Below are positions 3,538 through 62,824 of a DNA stretch of 64,000 bases, piece after piece. The stretch covers positions 17,290 through 81,289 of the forward strand of contig JAWOKS010000027.1 of NCBI GenBank assembly GCA_033854115.1, given 5' to 3'. Origin of the DNA: Thermoplasmata archaeon. Lineage in GTDB: Archaea; Thermoplasmatota; Thermoplasmata; Lutacidiplasmatales; UBA184. The position numbers were made by a program, and so were the translations under genes. Under the pieces are notes generated by a model. The model saw nothing but the letters and a program-made list of their open reading frames with translations, ran no database searches and was not told the origin of the DNA. How positions within the stretch are numbered: the stretch's first letter is position 1; each line of letters opens with the position of its first letter.

Positions 3538-4790
3538 CCGACGTCGACCCGCGGTCGCGGGCGGTGGCAGCGGGGACCCTCATGTTCGCCCGCACGGTCT
3601 ACGCGTTCAACTGGTACAACATCGGCGGGGTCCTGCCGCTCATCGGGACCCGGTTCGGGATCGGGACGGTCGAGTTCGGGATCCTCCTGGTCGCGTTCCT
3701 CGTGGGGGCCGCGATCTTCCAGATACCGGCAGGCTTCGCCGCGATGCGCTGGGGGAGCCGGGCGACCTCGGTCGCGGCGCTCGCCGTGATGGCCGCCTGC
3801 GCGTGCGCGTCGGCGGTCTCGCCGAACTGGATCGTGCTCGCCGCCTTCCGGTTCGGCACCGGGGCGGGGGCCGCGTTCTTCTTCGCCCCCGCGCTCGGGC
3901 TCGTGACCGCTTACTTCCCGAGCGGCCAGCGCGGGGTCGTCATCGGCGCCTACAACGCCGGGTTCAGCCTCGGATCCGGGGTCGGCGTCATCGTGAGCGC
4001 CGTGCTCGGCGAGCTCTACGGGTGGGCCGTCCCGCTCGCGCTCGGCGGCGCGCTCCTCGTGATCGCGACCGGCCTCGCGTGGGTCCTCCTGCCTCGCCCC
4101 TCGACCGAAGGCATGGGGCGGAACTTCGGGGAGGTGGCGCGCGCGGCCCGTCCGGTCCTCCGCTCGCGGACCCTCTGGGCGGTCGGGCTCGCGGGGATCG
4201 GTCTCTGGGGAGGGTTCTACATCGCGGCGCAGTACTTCGTCGCGTTCGCGCGCGACGTGCATCCGACCTGGAGCCTCGCTCTCGCTGCGGCCGCCCCGAC
4301 CTTGATGATCTTCCTCGAGATCCCCGGGGCGCCGATCGGAGGATGGTTCGGGGAGCGGGCACGGGACATGCGACGCACGCTCGCGCTCTGGGGCCTCGCG
4401 AGCGGAGCGCTGCTCGCGGCCGTACCGTTCCTGCCGTTCGACCTCATCGTACCGGCGTTCGTCCTGCTCGGGTTCGCCTGCGGGCTCACCTTCGCGCTCC
4501 TCTACCTGCTCCCGACGTACCTTCCCGAGGTCCGGGGGGATGCGATGGCGCTCGGTCTCGCCCTCGTGAACTCGGTCCAGATCTTCGGGGGCAGTGCGAT
4601 GGCGATCGCCTTCGCGGTCCTTGCGGCCGGCGTGGGCTACGAGGGAGCCTGGATCTTCGCGGGCGTGGCTACCGCCGCGTTCCTGCCCGCCCTCGCCCTC
4701 GCGTCGGCCCCGGGGCGTTCGCGCGGTGCGAGGGCCGGGGACGAGGGTGCTCCGACCCCCCCGGCCCTTCCGTCAGGTCGACTAGGGTGA
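3534..4790 (+). CDS. MFS transporter
   Basis: About 12 predicted TM helices and an MFS-like loop after TM2. GTG start at 3534 overlaps the stop of the upstream gene; an alternative ATG lies at about 3582. Confidence 0.7.
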   Translation: MTDVDPRSRAVAAGTLMFARTVYAFNWYNIGGVLPLIGTRFGIGTVEFGILLVAFLVGAAIFQIPAGFAAMRWGSRATSVAALAVMAACACASAVSPNWIVLAAFRFGTGAGAAFFFAPALGLVTAYFPSGQRGVVIGAYNAGFSLGSGVGVIVSAVLGELYGWAVPLALGGALLVIATGLAWVLLPRPSTEGMGRNFGEVARAARPVLRSRTLWAVGLAGIGLWGGFYIAAQYFVAFARDVHPTWSLALAAAAPTLMIFLEIPGAPIGGWFGERARDMRRTLALWGLASGALLAAVPFLPFDLIVPAFVLLGFACGLTFALLYLLPTYLPEVRGDAMALGLALVNSVQIFGGSAMAIAFAVLAAGVGYEGAWIFAGVATAAFLPALALASAPGRSRGARAGDEGAPTPPALPSGRLG

Positions 4791-6183
4791 GCAGGTTCGT
4801 CGGACGGCCCTCGACCGGGTAGCCGGCGGTCAACACCGCCACCCCTCCCTTCGGGAACCCGAGCTCGCGCGCGAGCTCCCGCGTCGCCACGCTGAGGTGC
4901 TGCAGCTGGCTGTGCGGGAGCGCCGGTCGGCCCAGGACCCCGCTCACGAGGCGAAGCTGGCGGCGCACGTGGGGGGAGCTCGACATCGCCACCACGGGGC
5001 AGTTCGGCCGGAGGGCGGCGACGAGACGGGCGGTCCGTCCCGAATGGGTAGGCGTCGCGATCACTCGGGCCTCGACCGCTTCCGCGAGGGTGACGGCGGC
5101 GCGCGCCACCGCGCGGTCCGGCTCGGTGCCGGCGAGGCGGGCGCGCGCTTCCCGGAGCGCGCGCGGGTCGAAGGCGGGCTCGGTCGCCTCGGCGATGCGG
5201 GCGAGCCACCTCACCGATTCGAAGGGGTACTCCCCGATCGCGGTCTCGTCGCTCAGCATCAGAACGTCCGCGCCGTCGAGCACCGCGTTGGCCACGTCCG
5301 TGGCCTCCGCCCGCGTGGGTCGCGAGGAGGTGAGCATGCTGAGCAGCATCTGCGTCGCCACGATCGCGAACTTCCCTGCGAGGTTGGCCTCGAGCACGAG
5401 GCGCTTCTGCTCGAGCGCGAGCTTCTCGAGCGGCAGGCTGAGGCCGAGGTCGCCCCGCGCCACCATGATGCCGTCGGACGCTGCGAGGATGCCGTCGATC
5501 GCCTCGAGCGCCTCGGGTCGCTCGATCTTGGCGATCACGCCGACCGGCCTCGAGGGGGCCACGTCCCCGAGCCAGCGTCGGACCTCGAGGACGTCCCGGG
5601 CCGAGCGTACGAACGAGAGCGCGAGGAAGTCCACGCCCTCGGTCACCGCCTCGAGGGCCGCCGTGCGGTCGCTCTTCGCGAACCAGGAGCCCCGGAACCG
5701 CGCGTGCGGGAGGTGAACGCCCGAGTGGGACGCGACGAGACCCCCGTGCACGACCGTGGTGTCCACACCGCCCGAGGCCACCCGATGGACCCGGAGCTCG
5801 ACACGTCCATCTCCGAGAAGGACCACATCCCCGGGGCGGCTGCCGACCCAGAACCTCGGAAGCTCGACCCCGACCCGGCGACCGTCGCCCGGGGCGGGCT
5901 CGGAGTCAAGGCGCCAGGGTCGGCCGGGGACGAGGCGGAGGGGGGACGTGGCGAGCTCCCCGAGGCGGAGCTTGGGTCCCGGCACGTCCGCGACGATCGC
6001 GAGCTCGGTGTGCTCCTCGCGCGTAACGGAACGGATCCGCTCGAGCACGGTCCGGTGCGTGGCGGTCGTTCCGTGGGAAAGGTTGAGGCGGAACGCGTCG
6101 ACCCCCGCTCGGACGAGCTCTCGAATCCCTTCCTTCGAGTCGCACGCGGGGCCCACCGTGGCGAGGATCCGGGTTCGACGCAC
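4669..6183 (-). CDS. pyk: pyruvate kinase
   Basis: N-terminus MRRTRILATVGPACDSKEGIRELVRAGVDAFRLNLSHG is the canonical PK signature. A C-terminal regulatory domain is present. About 35 aa of low-complexity 3' extension overlaps the convergent MFS gene. Confidence 0.85.
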   Translation of the reverse strand: MRRTRILATVGPACDSKEGIRELVRAGVDAFRLNLSHGTTATHRTVLERIRSVTREEHTELAIVADVPGPKLRLGELATSPLRLVPGRPWRLDSEPAPGDGRRVGVELPRFWVGSRPGDVVLLGDGRVELRVHRVASGGVDTTVVHGGLVASHSGVHLPHARFRGSWFAKSDRTAALEAVTEGVDFLALSFVRSARDVLEVRRWLGDVAPSRPVGVIAKIERPEALEAIDGILAASDGIMVARGDLGLSLPLEKLALEQKRLVLEANLAGKFAIVATQMLLSMLTSSRPTRAEATDVANAVLDGADVLMLSDETAIGEYPFESVRWLARIAEATEPAFDPRALREARARLAGTEPDRAVARAAVTLAEAVEARVIATPTHSGRTARLVAALRPNCPVVAMSSSPHVRRQLRLVSGVLGRPALPHSQLQHLSVATRELARELGFPKGGVAVLTAGYPVEGRPTNLLTLVDLTEGPGGSEHPRPRPSHRANAPGPTRGRGRAGTRR

Positions 6184-6258: not shown

Positions 6259-6331
6259 AGCCCCGTGGTGTAGTGGCCAAGCATGCTGGCCTTTGGAGCC
6301 GGCGACAGCGGTTCGAATCCGCTCGGGGCTA
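6259..6331 (+). tRNA. tRNA-Gln (anticodon UUG), archaeal type, no encoded CCA
   Basis: Manual cloverleaf: acceptor AGCCCCG/CGGGGCT (7 bp); D-arm GTGT..GCAT; anticodon stem CTGGC/GCCGG with loop CUUUGGA (anticodon UUG); T-arm AGCGG-TTCGAAT-CCGCT; discriminator A. Followed by AAT rather than CCA. Confidence 0.85.
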
Positions 6332-7946: not shown

Positions 7947-8769
7947 GAGTCCGCTCCCGGCCGGAGCCAGGGGGTTGACTGTGAGTATACCGTGGTTTCA
8001 CGCCTCAGGCCCTGCGGGGCTAGCGACGACTGCTTCCTCACGCTCGGGACGGGGTAGCCGCCCACGCCGGAGCTCTTCATCGCGAGCGATTTGGCCTGCG
8101 CGCTGGGGACCGTCGGGGGCCCGCTCTTCCCCCACGCCTTCGCCGCGGGTCTCGTGGCGGCCGCGTTCCTGGCACTCGTGGTGATCTCGCTCAGCAGTGC
8201 GTAGGGGTTCCCGGAGGCGATGGGCATCCCGCGAGACCGAGCGTTCTGGTGCTACTCCCTCGAGAGCGCCCCGCCCGTCGTCGTGTCGCTGCTGCTTTCC
8301 CATCCCCTTGCGCTCGTGCTGGACCTGTTGGCAGCCCTCGTCTTCGTCCTCATCGGGCCGGCTGTCGTCGTGGGGCTGCTGGCCGTGGATCCGCGGGTGA
8401 TGCACGAGCATGCATCCACCGTGCCTTGGAGGCTCGCCCATCGGACCGGTCTCGCTTCGGTGATCGCCTACGGGGTTGTCGCCCTCGCCTAGGTCGCCGG
8501 AGGCGAACCACGCAACCCTCGCGGGGTCGGTTCGACGGGCCGCGCGCGGCGGGCCCTGCTTCCGGCTGCAATCTCGGGGGCCAAGCCCTCGCGACGTCAG
8601 GGGTGTTCGGCCAAGTGAAAGGCCGCCCGTCCCTTCTTTCCCGCGCACGAGCTTATCTATCTGGAACCGACTCGCGGCTCGTGGGACGCGTCGACGCTGC
8701 CGCGAAGGCGAGGGCCCGGTCGCGCCGGGGCCGCGCCGATCGGAGGTCCCCTCCCGAGCGGGGTCCGCT

Positions 8770-10026
8770 GTGGTAGGGCTCGACTCCGGGGACATTGCGT
8801 GGGTCATCACGGCGACCGCGCTCGTCATGGTCATGACCCCCGCCTTGGGGTTCTTTTACGGCGGGCTGGTCCGTCAGAAGAACCTCGTTGCGACGATCGT
8901 GCAATGCCTGATGATCTTCTCCGTCGTGAGCATTGTCTGGGCCCTCTGGGGCTACACGCTCACCTTTGGCCCGGCAGTGGGTGGCCTCATCGGCAACCTC
9001 TCGAAGATTGGACTGTTGCACGTCGGTGAGGCGGCGAACACGGCGTACTCGAGCTCCATCCCGGAGCTGCTGTTCTTCGCGTTTCAGCTGAAGTTCGCCG
9101 CGATCACTCCGGCCCTCATCATCGGAGCCTTCGCCGGTCGGGCGCGGATGAAGGGCCTACTCCTGTTCATCGTGCTCTGGACGACGCTCATCTACGTCCC
9201 GATCGCGATGTGGATCTGGAACCCCGGCGGTTGGCTCCGCGACCTCGGTGTAGTCGATTTCGCGGGGGGCCTAGTGGTCCACACTTCTGCGGGAGTCTCG
9301 GCTGTCGCCGCCGCCCTCGTGCTGGGACAGGGTAAGGACTTCGGCAGGGAAGCTCGCCCCAACAACGTCCCCTACGTCATTCTCGGGACCGCGATTCTTT
9401 GGTTCGGCTGGTTCGGCTTCAACGCCGGGAGCGCGCTCGCTGCGAACGGGCTCGCCGTGAACGCCCTCGTGGACACCAACCTTGCGGCGGCCGCCTCGGG
9501 TGTGAGCTGGATGCTGGTCGACTGGGTGCGCAAGGGCCACCCGACGGCGGTCGGAATGGCCGTGGGCGCGGTTTGCGGTCTCGCGGCGGTTACCCCTGCG
9601 GCGGGATATGTTTCTCCCTCGGCGTCAATCCTCATCGGACTCGCGGCCGGATTGCTCTGCAATTTCGTCGCGGGTTGGCGGGCCCGGTCGACGCTGGACG
9701 ATTCGTTGGACGTGTTCGCCTGCCACGGCGCGGGGGGCATGTGGGGAACCATCGCAACCGGCCTGTTCGCCTCCGTGGCGGTCAATACGGCCGGCCCGAA
9801 CGGTCTCCTGTTCGGTAACCCCCACCAGCTGCTCGTCCAGCTCTTCGGAGTGGGTGTGGTCGCGTCGTTCGCGTTCGTCGGCTCGTATCTCCTGCTCCGG
9901 GCGATCACCCTCATCACGCCCCTGCGCGTCGCCCCTGCGGCGGAGGACGCCGGCCTCGACCTCGCCGAGTTCGGTGAGGAAGCCTACGACCCGTCACGCG
10001 GCCCGAGCGCTACTGGACCGCCCTAG
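8770..10026 (+). CDS. amt: ammonium transporter (Amt/MEP family)
   Basis: DIAWVITATALVMVMTPALGFFYGGLVRQKN is the Amt signature. 11 TM helices. A conserved twin-His region is visible (VVHTSAGVSAVAAALVLG...FACHGAGGMWGT). GTG start at 8770. Confidence 0.85.
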   Translation: MVGLDSGDIAWVITATALVMVMTPALGFFYGGLVRQKNLVATIVQCLMIFSVVSIVWALWGYTLTFGPAVGGLIGNLSKIGLLHVGEAANTAYSSSIPELLFFAFQLKFAAITPALIIGAFAGRARMKGLLLFIVLWTTLIYVPIAMWIWNPGGWLRDLGVVDFAGGLVVHTSAGVSAVAAALVLGQGKDFGREARPNNVPYVILGTAILWFGWFGFNAGSALAANGLAVNALVDTNLAAAASGVSWMLVDWVRKGHPTAVGMAVGAVCGLAAVTPAAGYVSPSASILIGLAAGLLCNFVAGWRARSTLDDSLDVFACHGAGGMWGTIATGLFASVAVNTAGPNGLLFGNPHQLLVQLFGVGVVASFAFVGSYLLLRAITLITPLRVAPAAEDAGLDLAEFGEEAYDPSRGPSATGPP

Positions 10027-11062
10027 GAGAGCGAGCCCGATGCCGCGCGGCTGCGATCCGCGGTTCGGGCGGGACTCACTTTCCGACCCGAAGCAACCGC
10101 CCGACGTAGACCGCGCTGGGTCCGAGACTACCGTTCGGCGCCGTAGGACGGCGGGACCTGCTCAGGACGGGCGGTCCGGCGCGTCCCGGCCACGAGAGTC
10201 AGGCAACCGTACCGCACCACTGAGGTGGCCTGTAGCCCCGTCGTGAGCGCAAACTACGGCACCAGAGATGACCAGAAGTTCAACACCGGGAGCAGCCTGG
10301 GCAAGTCCAACCCTTGGAGGCTCGCCAGGAGGCTATGTCGTGGGTTGCAGGGGAGTTCCGTGGGCGAGCATCCCCCAGTGGTTCAAACTTGTGCGAAAGG
10401 GGTTCCTATTCCATGGTGTTGACAAGTGACGCGCTGTACCGTCCGGTCCATCACGACCGAGTCAGCTCCGCCTCTTGCTTGCAGTCGAGAAGGATCAGCT
10501 GACAGGCCCCACACCGCCAGCCGCCGTAGTTGTGCACTCCGATCGAGTGGGGACGGATGGGTAGCATGTCCCCTCTGAGCCACAATCGCTCTTTCTGAGA
10601 ACTGAAGCTGATCCGGGCGTTTGTTCCTACGAACCCGCTCTCCATCGGACTCCTGCACCGTGGGCAACGAGGCGCAGAAGGGAGCGCCGTCGATCTCGCC
10701 GACGGCGCCAGGATACTTGAGGTTCGAGGGCAGGGCCGCTCGACCCTGGCGTCCTCGCACGCGGGGCACGGGGTCGTAGCGCTCCTCCGCCACGGGCGAG
10801 CCTCATGTCGAGAAGAACCTGACCCTTGGGCGCATCACGGTGCCGACCGTTCACTCCTGCCGTGGAGCTCGTGGTCGCGGGGGTTTGAGATGAGCGCCAG
10901 GGCTCATCGCCTCCGGGCCGCCCTGCCGGCGCGAACCCCCACGGGAAGCCAATATAGGATGGGGTCCCGGACGGGGGAGCGCCCCGCGCCGAGGCACGCG
11001 GTCTCTCGATGCGGCGTCCTCCCGGTCGAGGGGGTTAATCTATCCGGGGACGATTCCGGCGC

Positions 11063-13078
11063 GTGGGTGCTCCCCGCCGTCTCGCCGCGATCATGTTCAC
11101 CGACATGGTCGGCTCCACCGCCCTCGGGCAGGTTGACGAGGCGGCTTCTTTGGCCCTGACCGAGGAGATGCGAACTCGCTTGCGGCCGCTCTTCCGGGAC
11201 CACCGCGGGCGTGTGATCAAGACGATGGGGGATGGCTTCCTGATCGAATTCCTGAGCGCCCTCGAGGCCGTGACCTGTGGGCTCGAGATCCAGCGGTCGA
11301 TCCTGGAACGCAATGTCTCGATCCGTCAGGGTCCGCGACTTCTGGTGAGGATCGGCATCCACCTCGGAGACGTGGTGGAGGTGGACGGAGACATTTCCGG
11401 AGATGCGGTGAACATCGCCTCGCGCATCGAGCCCCTCGCGGAGCCGGGCGGGCTCTGCGTCACCGAGCAGGTGTACGCCCAGGTCCGACACAAGGTCAGC
11501 CCCCCGTTCCAGAAGCTCCCGCCGCGCCCTCTCAAAGGGGTCCAGGACCCGATCGATGTCTACGGGCTGGTGCCGACCGAGCGGCCGGACGAGGCGCCCT
11601 CCGGGCGACCCTCCCCGCCGCGTATCGCCGTGCTGCCCCTCGCGAACATCAGCCCGGACCCGAGCGACGAGTACTTCGCGGACGGTCTGACCGAGGAGCT
11701 CATCACCGTGCTCTCCCAGATCCGCGGCCTAAGGGTGATCGCCCGGACGTCGGTCGCGCAGTACAAGGGGTCGACCCGGTCCATCCCGCAGATCGGCCGG
11801 GAGTTGGGCGTGGACTCGATCCTCGAGGGGAGCGTCCGCAAGGCCGGTGACCAGCTCCGGATCACCCTGCAGATGATCGAGGTCGCGACGGAGGAGCACC
11901 GTTGGGCCCACACGTACGACCGGCGCCTGGAGAACATCTTCGCCGTCCAGCGGGAGATCGCCGAGCGCACGGCCGAGACCCTGCGGATCGAGCTCCTTTC
12001 GGCGGAGCGGGACGCTCTGGTGCAGAGGCCGACGACGAGTTCCGCCGCTTACAGCCTCTACCTGAGGGGCCTCCACGCCCTGCGCGCGACCGCCTCGCTG
12101 GACGACGCGGGCGCGGTCTCCTACTTCGAGGCGGCCCTCCGCGAGGACCCGCGCTTTTCCCCGCCGTACTCCGTCCTCGCGAACGTGCTCATCGGCGCGT
12201 CCGGGGAGACGCGACCGAGCCGGGAGGTCCTTCCTCGGGCCCGGGAACTGGTGAACCGCGCGCTCGAGCTGGACCCGGAGTCGTCCGATGCGCACTGCGC
12301 ACGGGGAAACCTCGCGATGCAGGACACCCACGACTGGGAGCTGGCCGAGCAGGAATTCCTGCGGGCGATCGGGCTGAACCCCAGCAGCTCCACGGCCCGC
12401 TTCTGGTTCGGCGTCCTCCTGTTGACCCTGCAACGGACCGTCGAGGCCGAAACGCAGCTCCGCCTCGCGATCGAGCTGGACCCCTTGATCACGGCCCCCA
12501 AGATGGTCCTCGTGCGGGTGTTCATGGCCGACGGGAAGTTCGATCGGGCCCTGGACCTGCTGCGCGCGATCCTCCGCAGCTCGCCGGAGCGCGCGGACCT
12601 CTACAGCGTCTGGACCGGATGGTGCCTTTTCTTGGACGGCCGCCCGGAGGAGGCGCGGCGGGAGGCCGACGCGTGGTTGCCGAAGCAGGACCGCCCGGGA
12701 CACCCGGGGCCGGCACTTCTCCAGGCCGCCCTGGGGAACCCCGCTCCCGCCCGCGCGTGGCTTTCCGCCCTGGAGGGAGGCTCCGCCCCCGGGTTCCACA
12801 CCCTCTCCCATGCGGCCGCGGCCTGTGCGGTCCTCGGAGAAACGCAGAAGGCGTTGGACCTATTGGAACGCGATCTCCGCGAGGGCGAGAGGAACCTGTG
12901 GTTCGTCTACGACTTCCCGTCGTTCGATCCGCTCCGTGCCGAGCCGAGATTCCTCGCGATGCTGAGGTCGATGAACCTTCCCACCACGCCCGGCGCGCGA
13001 AGACTGTGGTCGCGCGCGGTGCCCCGCGGCGGAGCCCCTGCGCTTACCGGGGACAGGCCCTCATCCCCCGGAAGCTGA
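11063..13078 (+). CDS. adenylate/guanylate cyclase (class III CHD) domain protein with a TolB-N-like region and C-terminal TPR repeats
   Basis: RRLAAIMFTDMVGSTAL...IKTMGDGFLIEF...IGIHLGDVV are cyclase-homology-domain metal/substrate motifs. This is followed by VLPLANISPDPSDEYFADGLTEELITVLS and then TPR-like helical repeats. Confidence 0.8.
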   Translation: MGAPRRLAAIMFTDMVGSTALGQVDEAASLALTEEMRTRLRPLFRDHRGRVIKTMGDGFLIEFLSALEAVTCGLEIQRSILERNVSIRQGPRLLVRIGIHLGDVVEVDGDISGDAVNIASRIEPLAEPGGLCVTEQVYAQVRHKVSPPFQKLPPRPLKGVQDPIDVYGLVPTERPDEAPSGRPSPPRIAVLPLANISPDPSDEYFADGLTEELITVLSQIRGLRVIARTSVAQYKGSTRSIPQIGRELGVDSILEGSVRKAGDQLRITLQMIEVATEEHRWAHTYDRRLENIFAVQREIAERTAETLRIELLSAERDALVQRPTTSSAAYSLYLRGLHALRATASLDDAGAVSYFEAALREDPRFSPPYSVLANVLIGASGETRPSREVLPRARELVNRALELDPESSDAHCARGNLAMQDTHDWELAEQEFLRAIGLNPSSSTARFWFGVLLLTLQRTVEAETQLRLAIELDPLITAPKMVLVRVFMADGKFDRALDLLRAILRSSPERADLYSVWTGWCLFLDGRPEEARREADAWLPKQDRPGHPGPALLQAALGNPAPARAWLSALEGGSAPGFHTLSHAAAACAVLGETQKALDLLERDLREGERNLWFVYDFPSFDPLRAEPRFLAMLRSMNLPTTPGARRLWSRAVPRGGAPALTGDRPSSPGS

Positions 13079-15013
13079 ACGGCGGTCGGGGGACAGGTTC
13101 ATTCCCCGGACCAGGGCGACGAACCGTGGGTCCCCGCGTATCGGGTCGAAATAGGGAGTCAGATAGTTGAACCAGAGACCCCTTTCGCCCGCCCGGTCCT
13201 CGCGCTCCAGGAGCGCCAGGGCCTTCTCGCGCTCCCCGAGCACCGCGTACAGGCCGGCGATCCAAGTGCCCGCGGCGTACTCCTGGAGCCGGCCCTGCTC
13301 CCAGTCCTCGAGCACGGACCGGGCTTCGGAAGCGTCCCCCAGCCAGGCGAGCAGGAGGGCTCGCCCGAACCGGTCGTGGAACGTGGCGGGAGAAGGCAGG
13401 TTCCGGGCGATCGCCTTCGCGTCGTCGGTCCTCCCGCGGAGGTAGTAGACGATCCCCAGGTTGACCCGCGGGTAGGCGAAGGCGGGCGCGCGCCGGACGA
13501 GCTCCTCGGCGAGGGCCAGAGCCTGGTCGAGCCGTGCCGAGGCGAAGTGGGTGTACATCAGGGAGTCGAGATAGGCAAGGCGGTGGGGTTCCAGGTCGAT
13601 CGCGGCCCGGAGCTCCCGCTCCGACTCGTCGAACCGCTGGAGGGTGCGCAGCAGGAGGCCGTACCAGTATCGAGCGAACGCATCGCTCGGCTTGAGCTCG
13701 AGGGCCCGTCGGAATTCTTCCTCGGCGAGCGACCAATCCAGGTCCGCCTGCATCGCGAGGTTGCCCTTCGCGGAATGCGCGTCGGAGGAGTCGGGGTCGA
13801 GCGCGAGGGCTCGTGCCACCAGCTCCCGGGCGCGGGGAAAGACCTCCCGTCCCGGGCTCAGCGCCCCGGCGGCGCCGAGGAGCAGGTGCGCTCGGTACGA
13901 GCACGCGGCGGCGAAGTTCGGGTCCTCGCGGATCGCCTGGTCGAGCAGTTGGCCGGCTCGCTCGAAGTCGACCCTCGTGTACGTTCGATACGCGTGGATC
14001 GCCTGCAGGAACAACCCGTACGCGGCGAGGTTCTGGGTCGGTTGACGTGCGATCGCCTCCCGATCCTGGCTGCCCAGCTGGAGCTTCAGCGCCTCCGCGG
14101 TGCGCTCGGCTACCTCGCGCTGGATCGCGAAGACGTTCTCCAGGCGACGGTCGTACGATTGCGCCCACAGGTGCTCCTCCGTACTCACGTCGACCAGCTG
14201 CATGGTGATGCGGAGCTGGTCTCCGGCCTTGCGAACGCTCCCCTCCAGGACCGTGGCCACGCCGAGTTCACCCCCGATCTGCGCGATCGGCTTGCTGGTG
14301 GCCTTGTACTGGCCGACAGAGGTCCGGGCGATCACCCGCAGGCCTTGGAGCTGAGAGAGAACGCTGATCAGCTCCTCGGTGAGGCCGTCAGCGAAGTACT
14401 CGTCGGCGGGGTCGGGGCTGATGTTCGCGAGCGGCAGGACCGCGAGGCGTGGCGGACCAGGGCGAGCCGCCTCGCGGACGTCGCCGACGGTTGACCACGG
14501 CAGGACGACCCGATAGACGCTCGTCGGCTCGCGAACGCCCTTCAGCGCCCGGGCGCCGAGCGGCTCGAGCGGGTAGGAGACCTTGTTGCGGACCTGGGCG
14601 TGGACCTGCTCGGAAAGGGTCACGCCCCCCTCCTCCGCCAACGGCTGGATCCGGGACGCGACATTCACCGCGTCGCCCGAGATGTCGCCCTTCGACTCGA
14701 CCACGTCCCCGAGGTGGATCCCGACCCTCAGACGGACCGCACGCTCCGGCGGGTGCGTGAGATTGTGCTCGCGTGCCTCGCGCTGGATCTGGACCCCGCA
14801 CTCCAGCGCCTCGAGCGCGCTGGAGAATTCCACCAGGAAGCCGTCCCCCAGGGACTTGACCTCGCGACCGTGGTGTCGACGGAAGATGGGCCGGACGAGC
14901 TTGCGGTGCTCCTCTCCCACCGCGAGCGCGAGGGCCTCGTCCCTCTGAGCCAGGGCCGTCGAGCCCACCATGTCCGTGAACATTATCGCCGCAAGCCGGC
15001 GCAAACGCGGCAC
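13061..15013 (-). CDS. adenylate/guanylate cyclase domain + TPR protein, paralog of 11063..13078, convergent with it
   Basis: Same architecture and roughly 60-65% identity by eye (MPRLRRLAAIMFTDMVGSTALAQRDEALAL...). The 3' ends of the two genes overlap by 18 nt. Confidence 0.8.
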   Translation of the reverse strand: MPRLRRLAAIMFTDMVGSTALAQRDEALALAVGEEHRKLVRPIFRRHHGREVKSLGDGFLVEFSSALEALECGVQIQREAREHNLTHPPERAVRLRVGIHLGDVVESKGDISGDAVNVASRIQPLAEEGGVTLSEQVHAQVRNKVSYPLEPLGARALKGVREPTSVYRVVLPWSTVGDVREAARPGPPRLAVLPLANISPDPADEYFADGLTEELISVLSQLQGLRVIARTSVGQYKATSKPIAQIGGELGVATVLEGSVRKAGDQLRITMQLVDVSTEEHLWAQSYDRRLENVFAIQREVAERTAEALKLQLGSQDREAIARQPTQNLAAYGLFLQAIHAYRTYTRVDFERAGQLLDQAIREDPNFAAACSYRAHLLLGAAGALSPGREVFPRARELVARALALDPDSSDAHSAKGNLAMQADLDWSLAEEEFRRALELKPSDAFARYWYGLLLRTLQRFDESERELRAAIDLEPHRLAYLDSLMYTHFASARLDQALALAEELVRRAPAFAYPRVNLGIVYYLRGRTDDAKAIARNLPSPATFHDRFGRALLLAWLGDASEARSVLEDWEQGRLQEYAAGTWIAGLYAVLGEREKALALLEREDRAGERGLWFNYLTPYFDPIRGDPRFVALVRGMNLSPDRRSASGG

Positions 15014-15208
15014 GACTCCCTCAGGGAGAAGCTGGGATTAAAGGCCGTGTCCCGCTCGAACTGAGGCGATTCAGGTCGTGGCAGTGGGTGCGGCCCATGA
15101 TGCGCGCCAATGACGTCGCACGATGGTCCCTCCAGAAACTTGATGCACCGTCCTGCATCTCTTGCGACCTGAGTCGGCCCTGCGTCTCGAAGCAAGGTCG
15201 AACTGGAA

Positions 15209-15925
15209 ATGGGCCCGAATGCCCGCCTCGCTGCCACCCTCGGAACGGCAGTCCCATCGGTCGCGACCATATTCATAGCGTTGTCCATGGGATGGTGGGT
15301 AATCCACACCGACGCGAATCCCTGGACAATTGGAGGCCACGAGTACCATTTCGTCGCGACGTCCACCGACCTGCCGGGCTCGAGCTATCGCACTCAATGC
15401 TGGGTGAACAATACCTCCATGCCGGGGTTCGGATCCCTTTGCGCGGCGGGGGAAGCCCAGGGGTACCTCACTCCGTACTATTCTTCGGGGGAGGGAAGTG
15501 CGAGTCTTGCCCAACTCTACTCAAACCTGTTCTGGGTGGTGTTGCTCTCGGGCGGAGCAGGTGTGGTCGGGGTCTCGGGCGTGGTGGCGCAACCTGCGCT
15601 CGCTCGACGCGTCCCGGCGTTCCCTTTCAGTTTCTTCTGGGCCATCCTGCTCGTCGCAGGGCTCATCGCTGTGGCGACCCCCCTCGGGTTCATGGTCGCG
15701 GAGCCGGGGGCCTACACGACGATCCATCCGGCAACCGCAGTCAACTCGTTCTGGGGAAGCTGTGCTTCCACGACCGAGCCAGGGTACTGTGGACCAAACG
15801 GCACGCAGTCCTGGGGACCCGGAGCCGGCTGGTTTCTCGCCTTCCTAGGAGGGGGCCTCCTTGTGGTCTCGGGCGTTGTGGGTCGAGGAATGGCTCGGAC
15901 TGCGCATCGACCATCGAACCGATGA
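15209..15925 (+). CDS. hypothetical membrane/secreted protein
   Basis: N-terminal TM (VATIFIALSMGWWVI) and two further hydrophobic segments. It lies in a lower-GC stretch and has no recognisable family. Confidence 0.4.
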   Translation: MGPNARLAATLGTAVPSVATIFIALSMGWWVIHTDANPWTIGGHEYHFVATSTDLPGSSYRTQCWVNNTSMPGFGSLCAAGEAQGYLTPYYSSGEGSASLAQLYSNLFWVVLLSGGAGVVGVSGVVAQPALARRVPAFPFSFFWAILLVAGLIAVATPLGFMVAEPGAYTTIHPATAVNSFWGSCASTTEPGYCGPNGTQSWGPGAGWFLAFLGGGLLVVSGVVGRGMARTAHRPSNR

Positions 15926-16157
15926 GAAGGCGTCGTGGGCCGGTTCGGACCACGTAGCCCCCGGTCCACCCTGCAGGATAGGGCGCAAGGCCACGGCAGG
16001 CGGACCCACATGGTGGGCGGCGCTCCTTGAAGTGATTCGGACCTCCTCCTCGGTGGCAGGCCAGTCGTTCATCCCCCCGCCGATCGTTACGCGAGGGGGG
16101 GCCTCTTCTGGGGACCCCCTCCGGACGGAAGGATGCAAATCCGCGGTCGCCCGTGGG

Positions 16158-16412
16158 GTAACCGTGGCTGCCTCGCGGCGCCTTGAGGCGATCACGTTCA
16201 CGGACTTAGCAGATTTCACCTCAACCACGCAGACGGAAGAGCCTCGTGCGTCACGAGTTCTCGAGGACCAGGAACGACTGCTTCGCTCGATCCGAGGGTT
16301 GCATGGTGGGCGCCGAGCAGGATCGATGGGGGACGGCCGGCTAGTCGAGTTCCCGAACGCTCTCGATGCGGTGGAGTGTGCCATCGACCTCCAGCGGCAC
16401 GTTCGCGATCGC
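16158..16412 (+). pseudogene. decayed fragment of a third adenylate/guanylate cyclase domain gene
   Basis: RRLEAITFTDLADFTSTTQ...MGDGRLVEFPNALDAVECAIDLQRHVRD aligns to the N-terminal CHD of the two intact paralogs. It loses similarity after about 85 aa and has no TPR part. Confidence 0.5.
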
Positions 16413-16455
16413 AGCGCCCGAGCCGGCAAGACACGGGATTGCGGAGAATCGAACG

Positions 16456-16842
16456 TCAGGCCCGCTTCGAGACTATCTCCACAAGATTCCCGTCAGGGTC
16501 CCTGAAAGTCGCGTTGCGATTGTTGTTCCCCGTGTCGTGAGGAGGCTGTACGGCCGGCACCCCCGCGGCCTTAAGGCGATGGAACGTCGTGTCCACGTCG
16601 CCCGTCCAGAGGACCAGCGCCATGGCTGGGCTTCCTGGAAGGGCATCCACCCCATGCACACGCTTCGCCGCCTCGACCGTCCCCAGTCCCAGGGTAAACC
16701 CTCCGACCTTGAACTCCACATGGGTAGGGGTCCCGGTCTTGGGGGTTCGGAACGTCTCCCTGAGCTCGAGGAGATCCCGGTAGAACCGGATGGCGGCGTC
16801 GATGTCTCGTGTATACAGGTTGACGAGTCCATCTGCGAACAC
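16456..16842 (-). CDS. VOC family protein (glyoxalase / bleomycin-resistance fold)
   Basis: 128 aa. LVNLYTRDIDAAIRFYRDLLEL ... HVEFKV ... FRDPDGNLVEIV is the typical paired beta-alpha-beta-beta-beta VOC pattern. Confidence 0.7.
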   Translation of the reverse strand: MFADGLVNLYTRDIDAAIRFYRDLLELRETFRTPKTGTPTHVEFKVGGFTLGLGTVEAAKRVHGVDALPGSPAMALVLWTGDVDTTFHRLKAAGVPAVQPPHDTGNNNRNATFRDPDGNLVEIVSKRA

Positions 16843-16909
16843 GGTGCCCGTCAGGAGGCGAGGTTACGTATCGGTTTGGGCCGGCCCATTGGGGAACCAC
16901 GCACGCGAT

Positions 16910-17446
16910 TCACCCGCCGGCCGTGCGTCTCGTAAGGTACCTTAGGATCGCGCCGGCCGTCGCCTCGGCAGGACCCGACGCGTCTATCGTCACTCCGCAG
17001 GGAACCTCGGCGACCAACTTGTAGACCTCCTTGACCGCCTGTTCCCCCTGCTGGTTCCCTCCTTGGGGTTCCACGCCGGCAAGAGGGAGGGGCCGCGTCT
17101 TGTCCCGCTCGACGCACACCCGCAACGGTGCCGCCAAAGTGAAGACCTGCAAGCCCCCGTCGGACCGCCCTGCAAGATCGTCGAGTTGCTCCCTCCAATA
17201 GAAACACCCGTCGAAGATCACGGACTGCCCGGCTTCCAGGGATGGTTGGGCCTGATCCGCCGCGATCGCGTTGGCTCTGAGAAAGCTCCGGAGCGAGATC
17301 CTGTCATCATCCCATTCCTCGAGCTCGTGGTCCTCCAGTATCCGGTCGATTGAAATGTAGTGAGCTTCGAGCGTTCGAGCCAGAGTGATGGCGATCGTCG
17401 ACTTCCCGACACCCAGAGGCCCTCGGATTACGACCGAGTAGGTCAT
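16910..17446 (-). CDS. P-loop NTPase / small-molecule kinase-like protein (AAA_33/TmrB-like)
   Basis: Walker A VIRGPLGVGKSTIA at the N-terminus of a ~178-aa protein. The ATG at 17446 is chosen over the upstream in-frame extension. Confidence 0.55.
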   Translation of the reverse strand: MTYSVVIRGPLGVGKSTIAITLARTLEAHYISIDRILEDHELEEWDDDRISLRSFLRANAIAADQAQPSLEAGQSVIFDGCFYWREQLDDLAGRSDGGLQVFTLAAPLRVCVERDKTRPLPLAGVEPQGGNQQGEQAVKEVYKLVAEVPCGVTIDASGPAEATAGAILRYLTRRTAGG

Positions 17447-17986
17447 CCCGAGGCCGAACGGTCCGTTCGGGACTATAGCAGCTCTGGTCCTGTCGCGCGA
17501 GGAGCAACCCCACGAGCTGGCCCAAGGGGACCGGCTCACGTGTCAGTCTGATCTCGGTCAGCGTGCACCGTTTTGAGACCGATGCCCCTCGAAGTAATCC
17601 GGGGTCATCCGAGAGGGACGGCAGGACTGGGCGGGGCGTCGTTCCACGTGAGGTTCCAAGTAGAACCAGTCAGGTGAGGGAACCGTGGCCGTTTAGGTGC
17701 GAGACACCCCACAGATTCCCGTCCCGATTCACCTCCTTGGGATTTCGGGAGGCCGGGAGTGTTCCTCCGACTCGCTGCGCTGCTCGAGATCGCGACCTCC
17801 CAGATCCCTCCCTCCGAGACGTTTGCGCGGGTCAGGGCATTCGCGTTGGTGGCTGGAGCCGTCGTCTTCCCCGGGTAGGCCCCGACCCGCCGGCGCACGT
17901 GGACGGCCGACCACCAGGGGCGCGACGAGCAGCAAGGCTGAACGGGCCACACGGCCCAGGGAACACGACGACGACGCGTCGAACGT

Positions 17987-18622
17987 TCACTCCGGCACAC
18001 CGCCAAGAAGTTCACCACAATCGCGACAGTTGGTCGCTCCGGCCGCGTTCAAGGTGCCGCAACGCGGGCAAACGTCCACCGTCGAAGGGACCAGGACGAA
18101 GTGCGGCCCCTTGGGTGTCGAAACGGCCAGCAACCCCCCCGTGAGGCAGAGCGCCATTCCCACGAGGAAGCCGCCCCCGCTGGCAAGCGATGCTGCCGCG
18201 AGAATAAGGACGAGAATCCCCGTCTCGGTCCGTCGGTGGTCCCACCCAAACCGAAGGACGAGACCCAGTCCGAGGAGAATCAGCCCGAGGGTGATCCCGA
18301 GCCCCCCCAACGGCTGGAGGTTGTCCGGATGGGCCTGGCTGAGACCGATCGGGGCGGGATGGCCACTCGTCCAAGCGATTCCCTCGAGCAGGATGAGGAT
18401 GCTTCCGATCAGGATCGCGATGAACGCAGCGACGACCCGTTGGTCCGGAACTTCCACCAAATGAGTCCCGGGCTGGGGAGACCTGCCGACGGCTGCCGCA
18501 TCTGGCCCTTCATCTCTCGTCGACAAGGACCGCACCCGCGAAGCGAGACCCGGAAGGGCCGCGGCCCAAGTAAGCTTGCTCCAGATCGGGTACCTTGACC
18601 TCGCGCGCCTGCGCGAATGCAA
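17987..18622 (-). CDS. hypothetical polytopic membrane protein with a C-terminal zinc-ribbon (CPRCG...CRDCG)
   Basis: Four hydrophobic helices followed by a CxxC-x11-CxxC motif. The start position is uncertain. Confidence 0.4.
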
Positions 18623-18709
18623 GGTGCGCTACCGCTTGATCTTCGACGGGGTCGCCATCGGCGCGACGACGGATTGACGGCCGGTCGAATCACCCTGCGG
18701 GACGTGACG

Positions 18710-56753: not shown

Positions 56754-58507
56754 CCCCAGAACGGGTGGACCGCGCGACGCATGCGGACGACCTCGTCGAG
56801 CGCCTCGCGCTCGCGCGGGGTGAGGGGCTGGTCCTTGAGCGCGCGGGCCGCGGACTCCGGAAGGACCACCCAGAGGACATCCTTCTCCCGGAGGTTGCGC
56901 CCGACCACCGCCCCGTCGATCGACGCGGCGAGCTCGTCGCCTTCCGGGGCCTCGCTCACGGAAGTGTTCTCCCGCTGGAGGCTCTTGAGGACCCCGACCT
57001 CGGTCCCGTCCGAGCGCATGAGGCGGACCCCGGGCCTAAGGGTCCCCCCGACGACCCGGATCCCGACGATCGCCGGCTTCGACATCCGGAAGACGAACCC
57101 CTCGAGGACCTCGAGCTTGGCGGGGTGCACGAGCTCAGCCCGCCGCGCCGCCTCGACCTCGCGGGTGCGGACGGCCTTCCACGCGAGGTACTCCTCGATC
57201 GACCGGTACATCACGTCCGCGCGGAACAGGTGGACCTGGTCGCCCGCCTCGGCCACGGCGTCCTGGAGGATCGGGACCCCGAACGCGAGCACCGCGCGGT
57301 GGACGGGGTCGTGTACGCTCGCGATCTTCATGACGGTCGACCGGCCGACCGGCCCGACCCCCGCCTCGTGGACCGGGATCCCCTTCTCGCGGCATTCGAA
57401 GGCGAGCGCCTCGAGGCCGCCGAGCGTGTCCGCGTAGATCGCGACGCCGCTCTCGGCGAGCTCGGCGACCGGGCGCGAGGCGGCGGCGAGCTCGCTCCGG
57501 ACCGTCTCGGCCTCCTCGGCGCTCCGGACGACCCGGAGGAGGCCCCCCGGCATCGCCTCCTCGATCCCGGGGGCCGCGAGGTAGACGCCCGCGGCCGCCC
57601 GGACCTCGTCGAGGGATTCGAGGCGGGTCGGACCCTTCCCCCGCGTCGACTTCACCGGTTGCGGCCGGTAGATCCCGCGGACCCGGCTCGCGAACGGCTC
57701 GAGCCGACCCGTCACGACGATCTCGTCGCCGACCTTGAGGCGGCCGCGGTAGACGATCACGCTCCCGACCGGGCCGACGCCCTTCTGGTCGCTCCGCTCG
57801 AGGATCGTCGCCTCGCCCCCGTCCCGGACGAGGACGAGCTCCTCCGCGAGGAACCGCTGCGAGAGGCCGACCAAGAGCGCGATCAGCTCCGGCACCCCGA
57901 CGCCGGTCTTCGCGGAGACCGGGACGATCCCGACGTTGTGCGTGAAGTCGCGCACCCGGTCGTAGCGGTCCGCGCTGAAGCCGAGTTGGTCGAGCTCCTC
58001 CGCGACCGCGTAGAGGCGCTGGTCGACCAGCTTCGCGAACTCCGAGCCGCTCCGCGTGAGCTGCTCGGCGAGCGGCACCGGGCCCGAGACCTTCCGCCAG
58101 CCCGAAAGGAGATCGATCTTCGTGAGCGCGATCGCGAACGGCGTCTTCTCGCGCCGGAGGATCTGGATCGACTCGCGCGTCTGTGGCATGACCCCCTCGC
58201 GCGCGTCGACGACGAGGACCGCGAGGTCGGCGAGCGCGCCGCCCCGCCGTCGCATCGTCTCGAACGAGCGGTGGCCCGGCGTGTCGACGAAGAGGAGCCC
58301 GGGGACGACGAGCTGGCCCTGCTTCAGGACGGTCTCGGCGAGGTGACGGACGGTCGGACCCGGCACCTCGATCGCGCCGATGTGCTGGGTGATCCCGCCC
58401 GCCTCGCGCGCCGCCCGGACGCTGCCCGAGATGCGGTCGAGGAGCGTTGTCTTCCCGTGGTCGACGTGCCCGAGGAGCGAGACGATCGGCTCGCGCAGCT
58501 CCGCCAC
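56747..58507 (-). CDS. infB: translation initiation factor aIF5B (IF2 homolog)
   Basis: LREPIVSLLGHVDHGKTTLLDRISGSVRAAREAGGITQHIGAIEVP is the aIF5B G1 region. G3 DTPGH and G4 TKID are present. 586 aa. Confidence 0.9.
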   Translation of the reverse strand: MAELREPIVSLLGHVDHGKTTLLDRISGSVRAAREAGGITQHIGAIEVPGPTVRHLAETVLKQGQLVVPGLLFVDTPGHRSFETMRRRGGALADLAVLVVDAREGVMPQTRESIQILRREKTPFAIALTKIDLLSGWRKVSGPVPLAEQLTRSGSEFAKLVDQRLYAVAEELDQLGFSADRYDRVRDFTHNVGIVPVSAKTGVGVPELIALLVGLSQRFLAEELVLVRDGGEATILERSDQKGVGPVGSVIVYRGRLKVGDEIVVTGRLEPFASRVRGIYRPQPVKSTRGKGPTRLESLDEVRAAAGVYLAAPGIEEAMPGGLLRVVRSAEEAETVRSELAAASRPVAELAESGVAIYADTLGGLEALAFECREKGIPVHEAGVGPVGRSTVMKIASVHDPVHRAVLAFGVPILQDAVAEAGDQVHLFRADVMYRSIEEYLAWKAVRTREVEAARRAELVHPAKLEVLEGFVFRMSKPAIVGIRVVGGTLRPGVRLMRSDGTEVGVLKSLQRENTSVSEAPEGDELAASIDGAVVGRNLREKDVLWVVLPESAARALKDQPLTPREREALDEVVRMRRAVHPFWGQ

Positions 58508-58531
58508 GGTGCGCCGACCGACGGGGGACCC

Positions 58532-59926
58532 TTATCGTTTGGGCGGGCCCGCCGAGCGGCCCCGACGGCGGGCGACGGGGCCGGGAGGTTCCGCTCCGAC
58601 CGCCAGGGTCAGGTCCTCGAGCGACCCCGCGACGAGGGGCACGACGAGCTCGGCCGGTTCGAGGCCGCCGTGCGCGCCCAGCATCGGTCGTCGGGCCCCC
58701 GCGCGCCCGGGCATGGTGTAGGTGATCCCCCCGGGGCTCGGGATGAGGACGACGAGGTCGCCGATCCGCTCCTCGAGCTCGGGGTGGAACGGCGGCGGGC
58801 CGAACAGGCCTTCCCGCAGCGCCCGACCGGCATCGAGGGCTCGGGCGCCGGCGGGCAGGCGCGCAACGACCTCCTCCGCCAAGCGATCGGCCTGACCCGG
58901 CCGGGCCCGAAGGAGCGCGGCCCGGCGGTCCCCGGACGGTGGACGCGCGAGGAGGGCCTCGATCGCGGGTTCGCGGTCGACCGCGAGCTGCCGCTCGGGG
59001 TCGGACGGTACCAGCCCGTGATCGGCCGTGACGAGCACCGTGAGCGCACGGGCCCGCCGCGGACCGAGCTCGCGCGCGACGAACGTGAGGAGCGCGCCGA
59101 GCTGCTCGAGCTCGAGGGCCACGGCGCCGGACCCCGGACCGCGCAGATGCTCGAGCGCGTCCAGCTCGTCCCAGTAGGCAAGCGTGAGCGGGGGCGGGGA
59201 GTCCGCGGCCAGGGTCTCGACGAGCCGTCCGGCGAAGTCGCTCAGGGTCGCGTAGGGGAGGTAGGCCGCCCCGTCGTAGAGGAGGCGGGTGAACCCGTGG
59301 CCGTCGAAGCGATCGCGGGAGATCGCGACCGCAGGGACCCCGCTCGCCCGGAAGACCGTGGGGGCGCCCGAGACCAGCTCGGGGGTCCACGCGGGGCCCA
59401 CCAGCGCCTCCTCGGCGGCCACTCCGAGCGGCGACATGTGGAGGAGCTCGACGACCGCCCCGAAGCGGGGAAGGTAGGCCCGATGCCCGACGAGCCCGTG
59501 CCGGGCGGGGGCGGAGGCGGTGGAGAGGCTCGTGAGCGCGACCGTCGTCGTGCTCGGGAAGACGGTCGTGATGGGTCGGGTGTGCGCGAGCCACGCCCGC
59601 GCGGGGGCCGACCCCCGCTCGGCGAGGTCGGCGAGGCGGTCGAGCCCGAGACCGTCGACCACGAAGAGGAGCACCGGGCCCTCGGCCCGCCTACCCTGGA
59701 ACGGATCGACCTCGTCGGCGAGGGGCGGCAGGGTCCCCTCGGCCGGCTCCCGGCCGAGCGCCCGAACGAGCGAGGCCGCGACGTTGGGCACGGAGCGGCC
59801 CCCGTAGGCGGGGAGCGGGACCCCGAGCGGCCCGCGGGATGCGATCAGGTCCTCGATCTGCCGGTCCCATCGCCCGCGCTGCCGGAAAGGCCGGGACGGG
59901 GACGTTTCGCGAGCTTGGTCCGACAC
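58532..59926 (-). CDS. alkaline-phosphatase superfamily protein (COG1524 / phosphodiesterase-nucleotide pyrophosphatase type)
   Basis: VLLFVVDGLGLDRL (metal-binding Asp) and TTVFPSTTTVALTSLSTASAPARHGLVGH (nucleophile Thr/Ser region). Confidence 0.7.
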   Translation of the reverse strand: MSDQARETSPSRPFRQRGRWDRQIEDLIASRGPLGVPLPAYGGRSVPNVAASLVRALGREPAEGTLPPLADEVDPFQGRRAEGPVLLFVVDGLGLDRLADLAERGSAPARAWLAHTRPITTVFPSTTTVALTSLSTASAPARHGLVGHRAYLPRFGAVVELLHMSPLGVAAEEALVGPAWTPELVSGAPTVFRASGVPAVAISRDRFDGHGFTRLLYDGAAYLPYATLSDFAGRLVETLAADSPPPLTLAYWDELDALEHLRGPGSGAVALELEQLGALLTFVARELGPRRARALTVLVTADHGLVPSDPERQLAVDREPAIEALLARPPSGDRRAALLRARPGQADRLAEEVVARLPAGARALDAGRALREGLFGPPPFHPELEERIGDLVVLIPSPGGITYTMPGRAGARRPMLGAHGGLEPAELVVPLVAGSLEDLTLAVGAEPPGPVARRRGRSAGPPKR

Positions 59927-59944
59927 CGTCGTCCCCCGGCACTC

Positions 59945-61120: not shown

Positions 61121-61173
61121 CGACCGATCGGTCCGGGGAGGCGCCGCGACCTCAAAATCCCGGGGGTCGGAGG

Positions 61174-62791: not shown

Positions 62792-62824
62792 CGGACGGAA
62801 TGCTCGAGCGGACGGACGCCGGAC

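Follow-up and report, generated by a model that had tools for sequence, protein, structure and literature searches.

Measurements of cyclic AMP (cAMP) in archaea go back to 1986, and two genes of a Thermoplasmata archaeon of the Lutacidiplasmatales raise the question of which proteins might make it and read it there. The genes, cyclase A and cyclase B, face each other on a 64-kb stretch of contig JAWOKS010000027.1; this whole stretch, called the window below, has a mean GC content of 70.7%, and all coordinates refer to it unless another locus is named. According to a 2023 review, no archaeal cAMP-making enzyme or cAMP receptor has been characterised, and a major role of cAMP in archaea is doubted (PMC10249747). 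Our search of the literature returned no paper on the architecture described here or on cyclases in soil Thermoplasmata, Lutacidiplasmatales or Gagatemarchaeaceae. We consider it likely that A and B are both intact, that each is transcribed on its own and that they encode soluble adenylyl cyclases of class III (IIIc-like) with a CadC/HilA-type sensor module. This makes their family a strong candidate for the enzymes that synthesise cAMP in archaea.

Cyclase A (open reading frame [ORF] A, 11063..13078, plus strand) and cyclase B (ORF B, 13061..15013, minus strand) both begin with GTG and encode 671 and 650 amino acids, respectively, in the ORF list. The two proteins are 55% identical over 641 residues (BLASTP, E = 0), and the ORFs share 18 nt at their 3' ends, as had been stated for this convergent pair of paralogues in a preliminary description of the locus. 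In A, an N-terminal cyclase homology domain (CHD; residues 5–170, 11075..11572, plus strand), delimited by PF00211 and an AlphaFold model, precedes a TolB-N-like domain assigned by fold match (residues 187–310, 11621..11992, plus strand), a tetratricopeptide repeat (TPR) solenoid recognised by Pfam TPRs and the model (residues 311–640, 11993..12982, plus strand) and a nonconserved, disordered tail that creates the overlap (residues 641–671, 12983..13075, plus strand). B carries, on the minus strand, the same succession of a CHD (14504..15001, PF00211), a TolB-N-like domain (14078..14449, by paralogy to A) and a TPR region (13091..14077, Pfam TPRs). PF00211 (Guanylate_cyc) is matched over residues ~9–160 with 51.8 bits in A and 56.6 bits in B, against a cut-off of 21.9, and the families TPR_16, TPR_19, TPR_2, TPR_14 and TPR_17 score above their cut-offs, each of the two proteins matching several TPR families at residues ~390–545.

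The model of A, computed from a 70-sequence alignment, has a mean pLDDT of 90 and a pTM of 0.73. It consists of three domains and a disordered tail: the CHD (residues 5–169), a low-confidence linker (170–186), an alpha/beta domain (187–306), an all-helical solenoid (313–636) and the tail (641–671), where pLDDT falls below 50. A Foldseek search of the PDB places the CHD next to 3mr7, Ma1120 and Rv1900c (TMt 0.87–0.92, r.m.s. deviation of ~2 Å); it is a genuine class III domain, whose closest counterparts are the mycobacterial domains of type IIIc. When modelled alone, the middle domain reaches a pLDDT of 90.8 and matches the TolB N-domain, PelC, LpoB and GNA1162 (TMq 0.55–0.67, E 1e-7 to 1e-5), the TolB chains with TMq of 0.60–0.67. 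Residues 181–326 of A give no Pfam match at E ≤ 0.001, the TolB_N model included. The shared CHD, TolB-N-like and TPR architecture that had first been described is thus confirmed by PF00211, the TPR families and the fold matches, the label TolB-N-like holding at the level of the fold but not of a Pfam sequence match.

The C-terminal ~310 residues of A, which comprise the middle domain and the solenoid, superimpose in the same search onto the sensory domain of Escherichia coli CadC (3ly7–3lya, TM 0.66–0.69). Among the NCBIfam models, this module gives sub-threshold matches to HilA/EilA (PRK12370, E 1e-15) and to CadC (PRK10153, E 2e-9). Membership of these two families was rejected, with scores of 34–57 bits against 589 for PRK12370 and 37 bits against 400 for PRK10153; the only NCBIfam model to reach its curated cut-off is TPR_END_plus in A, exactly at 32 bits. 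Both proteins are predicted to be cytoplasmic and soluble, since neither has a hydrophobic segment, the maximum 19-residue Kyte-Doolittle means being 1.44 in A and 1.18 in B.

Conservation of the catalytic site was followed in an alignment of 100 full-length members, namely A and B together with 98 proteins encoded at related loci (the best 80 of at least 568 homologous stretches in species-representative genomes). The six catalytic residues D14, K53, D57, D110, N117 and R121 are present in both A and B; all members share D14, D57, D110, N117 and R121 (100/100), and 99/100 have K53. A second alignment, of 70 sequences, yields the same list of invariant residues. Loss of these residues, which would have made A and B pseudo-cyclases, had been considered in the preliminary description; the 100-member alignment shows them intact in both CHDs. 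By the rules known for class III cyclases, a Lys/Asp pair goes with ATP as the substrate, which predicts ATP for A and B, in which K53 and D110 fall opposite the corresponding Lys and Asp of Ma1120. According to PDB titles, a triple mutant of Ma1120, 'KDA to EGY', has been deposited as the specificity-switch variant.

An all-against-all comparison of ORFs across the 80 related loci revealed one informative recurrent neighbour, a stand-alone protein found in 8–9 of them, with a length of 134–161 residues wherever its start codon could be placed with confidence. The three such proteins that were scanned all match PF00027 (cNMP_binding) with E values of 1e-18 to 1e-19, and the FGE...R[ST]A phosphate-binding cassette is kept. 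These cyclic nucleotide-binding (CNB) proteins are encoded near cyclases at the following positions of the respective loci: L025 9172–9657, L043 3562–3993, L042 8803–9408, L051 5467–5871, L054 7718–8374, L028 9358–10116, L030 3694–4134 and, twice around a four-cyclase cluster, L069 5361–5825 and 13122–13559. At several of these loci the two genes are immediate neighbours separated by no more than ~100 nt; the distance is 64 nt in L025, where the CNB gene lies downstream, and 90 nt in L043, where it lies upstream. The stand-alone CNB proteins of these soil archaea are, as far as their sequences tell, candidate cAMP receptors. Their adjacency supports real cAMP signalling, as guilt by association and no proof.

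The recurrence of these neighbours, which bind cyclic nucleoside monophosphates (cNMPs), also bears on the nature of the product. The proteins might make another nucleotide, either cGMP or, as in Pycsar defence, cCMP or cUMP, or they might be noncatalytic TPR scaffolds. Class III cyclase specificity is not fully predictable from two residues, and matches are indeed seen to the PycC models of PADLOC (17–22 bits, weak) and to TIGR04510, 'peptide modification system cyclase' (57–63 bits), but these scores fall well short of the respective cut-offs (400 for TIGR04510), the Lys/Asp adenine pair, the metal ligands and the transition-state residues are invariant or nearly so, and the genes are chromosomal, multi-copy and set among housekeeping genes with no Pycsar effector gene adjacent. 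We regard such alternative products, or a scaffold role, as unlikely. Membership of PycC, together with a defence reading, was rejected on these scores and on the neighbourhood, which consists of an ammonium transporter (Amt), a hypothetical membrane protein and a VOC gene; TIGR04510 was rejected as well, as was NF058673 LipJ, which is matched at 59–72 bits against 800.

The upstream regions of A and B suggest that each gene may be transcribed on its own. A TATA-box-like TTAATC lies exactly 28 nt upstream of the GTG of A (11035..11040, plus strand), and another exactly 28 nt upstream of the GTG of B (15036..15041, minus strand). Comparison of the upstream regions of 106 family genes reveals a conserved AT-rich box at the same distance (~28 nt), which in Thermoplasmata reads GGGGCTTAATCTAAC before a GTG start, and the extended motif around the TTAATC of A and B fits it. 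In the homologues from Nitrososphaerota and Bathyarchaeia, the box is CCCACAACGGATTTATCG and precedes a TTG or ATG start. From the usual layout of archaeal promoters we infer a transcription factor B recognition element (BRE)/TATA element that would drive leaderless mRNAs; as the box travels with the paralogues, it is perhaps a site for a shared regulator too. Its position also speaks for GTG 11063 as the codon at which A really begins. An alternative database call gives A 661 residues and would remove strand beta-1.

The same genes occur in a second assembly (GCA_037932185.1), in which a 7.8-kb contig, L081, is 99.78% identical to window positions 8489..16185 over 7.7 kb, with the same gene order and orientation and with the exact B protein encoded. 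Among the 17 differences, six fall in A (five synonymous and E68D) and one, synonymous, in B. This pattern, with six of seven changes synonymous, is as expected under purifying selection, the counts being small. The last 117 nt of the contig (L081 7698–7814) are unrelated to window 8372–8489, just upstream of the ammonium transporter gene, which reflects a rearrangement between strains or else a chimera at the end of the contig.

Two predicted promoters on opposite strands also speak to the possibility that A and B form an obligate heterodimer, like C1 and C2 of the mammalian cyclases, which would explain their joint retention. Class III cyclases act as dimers, and here two paralogues with CHDs 62% identical are adjacent; each protein, however, has the full six-residue set, so that two-site homodimers are possible, each gene has its own predicted promoter, and pairing is not conserved, 61 of the 80 related loci being single-copy within the sequence available. 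Obligate heterodimerisation thus appears quite unlikely, and we retain the reading of A and B as independently transcribed genes.

The 18-nt overlap itself (13061..13078, both strands), TCATCCCCCGGAAGCTGA, spans from the reverse complement of the stop codon of B to the stop codon of A and is wholly contained in the last 31 residues of A. These residues (641–671) have a mean column conservation of ≤0.15 in the family alignment and are disordered in the model, and the convergent cyclase pairs at two related loci, L061 and L069, do not overlap. On these grounds, the overlap is most simply explained by read-through of A to the next stop and is not a conserved feature. A hairpin or terminator at this place was considered and dropped, as it would have only a 6-bp GC stem and no T-run. 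Convergent transcription with no intergenic terminator makes some mutual interference possible, which is speculation.

The preliminary description saw in the pair an imperfect inverted repeat of ~2 kb that could permit recombination or inversion. The arms are indeed homologous and inverted, but the repeat is weak as DNA: the arms are 64% identical overall and 70% identical over 1.4 kb, and the longest exact word they have in common is 17 nt. The inverted orientation of homologous genes would suit a segment that inverts or recombines, or one that serves gene conversion between A and B. Against this, no recombinase gene is seen beside the pair, the independent assembly described above shows the same orientation, and the arms abut, so that an exchange would invert gene-internal sequence only and yield chimeric genes. 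Inversion is therefore implausible, and we hold any such device to be extremely improbable.

The family to which A and B belong is large and, in its closest part, archaeal. A protein search with A returned at least 7982 significant matches among 8000 candidates scored, and one with B at least 879 clusters at E ≤ 1e-150. The best protein matches are 50–56% identical, and among the matches listed all those named by NCBI are 'Thermoplasmata archaeon'. The best 80 loci comprise 54 from Thermoplasmata, 15 from Nitrososphaerota, 3 from Bathyarchaeia, 4 from unclassified archaea; the other 4 carry a bacterial label. A neighbour-joining tree places A and B within a block of ~60 Thermoplasmata sequences, and the four sequences with a bacterial label among those of Nitrososphaerota and Bathyarchaeia. 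Soil or peat is the source of many of the metagenome-assembled genomes (MAGs) that carry the homologues, among them the acid-soil genomes described for the Lutacidiplasmatales. Genomes of this order are reported to have ~69% GC and ~2.1 Mb (PMC9287336), which fits the 70.7% GC of the window. The family thus appears to have expanded within soil Thermoplasmata and to be present in soil Nitrososphaerota and Bathyarchaeia as well. Public pipelines already name it 'adenylate/guanylate cyclase domain-containing protein'.

The architecture had been called common in Proteobacteria, and this is borne out by 513 records of rhizobial-type replicons with homologues in up to 10 places per replicon; in 86 of these records a single match covers ≥80% of A, with an identity of 34–36% in the best-listed records. 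It had also been called unusual for archaea, with which 76 archaeal loci among the best 80 and hundreds of proteins from soil Thermoplasmata MAGs are at odds. The family as a whole may have arisen in bacteria long ago.

More than one CHD is present in 19 of the 80 related loci, the remainder being single-copy within the sequence available. The multi-copy loci include tandem arrays (L036 and L069 with four copies each, L052 with three), a divergent pair (L014) and convergent pairs (L061, L069), and several genomes contribute two to five copies among the best 80 loci. Clustering of paralogues is thus a trait of the family, and the pairing of A and B is in itself unremarkable. A and B are mutual best matches (57% on trimmed columns), with homologues in other genomes at 54–55%, and a search with B finds nothing closer than 56%. 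The two form a cherry in 40 of 100 bootstrap neighbour-joining trees; on this support a recent tandem duplication was not claimed. Either the duplication is old or, perhaps, A and B do not descend directly from one duplication. Along the proteins, their identity varies from 75% in the TolB-N-like domain and 62% in the CHD to 53% in the N-terminal half of the TPR region and 42% in its C-terminal half, consistent with divergence of the sensing surface.

A search of the whole window by tblastn found a single further place homologous to A and B, a relic of a third family member (16164..16505, plus strand) that has a GTG start and an open frame of 113 codons, as defined by tblastn and translation. 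The match, at 16164..16418, has 40–45% identity to residues 1–85 of A and B (E 1e-13 to 1e-14). The GTG at 16164 aligns with the start codon of A and the stop is at 16505, but homology is limited to codons 1–84 (16164..16415), that is, to the N-terminal half of the CHD. Within these 84 codons, 9 of 10 invariant residues are kept and K53 is replaced by Gly. The frame lacks the half of the CHD that bears D110, N117 and R121; together with the Gly in place of K53, this makes it a predicted dead 5' stump that could not act as a cyclase. Further along, the frame enters the 3' end of a gene of the VOC/glyoxalase family (16456..16842, minus strand; PF00903, E 7e-20) that converges on the relic and abuts it. 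No Pfam match was obtained for the relic, only a weak one to the LipJ CHD in NCBIfam (E 0.003), no TTAATC box lies upstream of it, and the missing 3' part was not found in the window, where tblastn gave chance-level matches (E >0.9). The contig L081 covers no more than the first 21 nt of the relic, ending at window 16185.

The decayed third copy of the preliminary description is therefore a real homologue; it shows no frameshift or internal stop, being truncated after about codon 84 rather than frame-decayed, and it lies upstream, not downstream, of B, since B is on the minus strand. Family members are 40–52% identical to it, against a family median of 60% in the same region; several members in other genomes reach 48–52%, compared with 40% for A and 45% for B, which rank 94th and 52nd in closeness among the 100 members. 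As it is nearer to members from other genomes than to A and B, the relic appears to be the remnant of a third, distinct paralogue, derived from neither. Another N-terminal fragment occurs in L013 (7034–7267), and CHD-only ORFs of ~160–173 residues accompany full-length copies in L058 (from 2327), L018 (from 5604), L013 (from 8582) and L050 (from 15152). Such fragments and CHD-only ORFs suggest ongoing birth and death in the family, or else free-standing catalytic subunits.

These observations allow us to weigh a recent acquisition from bacteria followed by local duplication, in an archaeon where such cyclases would be foreign, as the preliminary description had proposed. Class III cyclases are predominantly bacterial, rhizobial replicons are rich in full-length homologues, a relic copy lies nearby and GC is lower at 15.0 to 18.6 kb. 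However, the nearest relatives are archaeal, at 50–56% identity against the 34–36% of the rhizobial proteins, A and B sit inside the Thermoplasmata block of the tree, and their GC content of 69.4% and their GC content at third codon positions (GC3) of 0.88–0.89 are typical of the window and the genome, so that there is no sign of recent transfer. Nor does local duplication fit: A and B, only 55% identical and sisters in 40 of 100 bootstraps, are no closer to each other than to homologues from other genomes, and the relic stems from neither. Recent acquisition is largely refuted and very unlikely; A and B are better read as members of an archaeal family.

The gene between B and the relic had been noted for its lower GC, and this is confirmed, at 63.6% against 69.4%. 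It encodes a hypothetical hydrophobic protein of 238 residues (15209..15925, plus strand), is divergent from B and is also called on L081; scans of Pfam, PADLOC and NCBIfam gave it no family match. GC is ~63–65% throughout window positions 15000–18650, compared with 70.7% for the window. The segment contains this multi-pass membrane protein gene, the relic, the VOC gene, an AAA_33 kinase-like gene (16910–17539) and a gene for a membrane protein with a C-terminal zinc ribbon (17987–18622), and may be in decay or have been remodelled more recently. At 18378–18482 (minus strand), TPR residues 385–418 of both A and B find a match at chance level (tblastn E 1.7–8).

From the established biochemistry of class III cyclases, the following mechanism can be proposed. 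The N-terminal CHD would dimerise head to tail, with D14 and D57 holding two Mg/Mn ions, K53 and D110 reading the adenine base, and N117 and R121 stabilising the transition state as ATP is converted into cAMP. The sensor module would bind a ligand or a partner and so gate the geometry or the activity of the dimer; as its C-terminal TPR half is the most divergent between A and B, the paralogues may report different inputs. The cAMP would then be read by small stand-alone cNMP-binding proteins like those that neighbour homologous cyclases in other genomes. The convergent layout and the overlap would be incidental, arising from C-terminal read-through of A, and would not serve as a recombination device.

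Several points weigh against this interpretation. Adenylyl cyclase activity is predicted for the family from its residues and folds, and the ATP specificity from two residues only. The likeness to CadC is at the level of the fold or below threshold, and the CadC domain is periplasmic whereas the module is cytoplasmic here. The adjacency of CNB genes is an informal statistic, and no cNMP-binding gene or phosphodiesterase was found in the 64-kb window. Finally, similarity to A was the criterion for choosing the related loci, so that the tree is biased in favour of archaeal relatives. The single CNB match in the window was discarded as an off-frame artefact of an over-long ORF.

The interest of these genes lies in the family more than in the locus, A and B being two old paralogues of an already annotated kind. 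With a complete catalytic set, hundreds of archaeal members, several copies per genome and recurrent CNB genes, the family supplies testable candidates for the missing synthase and receptor. We see about an even chance that soil archaea (Thermoplasmata, Nitrososphaerota and Bathyarchaeia) run a genuine, lineage-expanded cAMP network built from paralogous cyclases with CadC-like sensors, BRE/TATA promoters and CNB receptors; if so, A and B would be among the first concrete candidates for archaeal cAMP synthases. The family further points to a heavy investment of uncultured soil archaea in sensory signalling.

Elsewhere in the window, the region is flanked by a pyruvate kinase gene (4669–6183) and a tRNA-Gln(TTG) gene (6259–6331), as would be expected of an ordinary part of the chromosome. 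The ammonium transporter ORF (PF00909, 8476–10026) has 516 codons from its first start codon, while the profile is matched from residue 108 onwards and the protein annotated on L081 has 418 residues; the real start is probably near 8770. Two very long plus-strand ORFs (56765–61234 and 61736–64000), whose distribution of GC over the codon positions is atypical, with 0.92–0.93 at first positions and a GC3 of 0.79, overlap long minus-strand ORFs and are probably shadow frames rather than genes.

Among known systems, the CHD most resembles those of the mycobacterial IIIc cyclases Ma1120 from Mycobacterium avium (4wp9/5d0e) and Rv1900c/LipJ from M. tuberculosis (1ybt), and that of 3mr7 from Silicibacter pomeroyi. 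With A these share the CHD fold (TM ~0.9, 30–39% identity), the Asp metal pair, the Lys/Asp substrate pair and the Asn/Arg transition-state pair. They differ in their regulatory partner, which is an alpha/beta hydrolase in Rv1900c and is absent from the crystallised Ma1120 construct; A and B carry the CHD at the N terminus, followed by the TolB-N-like domain and the TPR region, and have an archaeal host. The whole architecture is found in rhizobial proteins (Sinorhizobium, Rhizobium, Ensifer) of ~610–640 residues, which are multi-copy and collinear over 94–98% of the protein. These are bacterial and 34–36% identical, whereas the archaeal family forms its own, closer radiation at 40–56%; to our knowledge, the multi-copy rhizobial cyclases are largely uncharacterised.

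The sensor module of A corresponds to the two-part module, alpha/beta followed by helices or TPRs, of E. coli CadC (3ly7) and of HilA/EilA, onto which it superposes over ~310 residues. The output differs, as a cyclase takes the place of the winged-helix DNA-binding domain and the N terminus is a CHD. With no transmembrane segment in A or B, the module would be cytoplasmic, as in HilA and unlike the periplasmic domain of CadC. The middle domain of A and B (residues 187–310) shares its alpha/beta fold with TolB, PelC, LpoB and GNA1162, all of them bacterial envelope proteins, whereas in A and B the domain is archaeal and predicted to be cytoplasmic.

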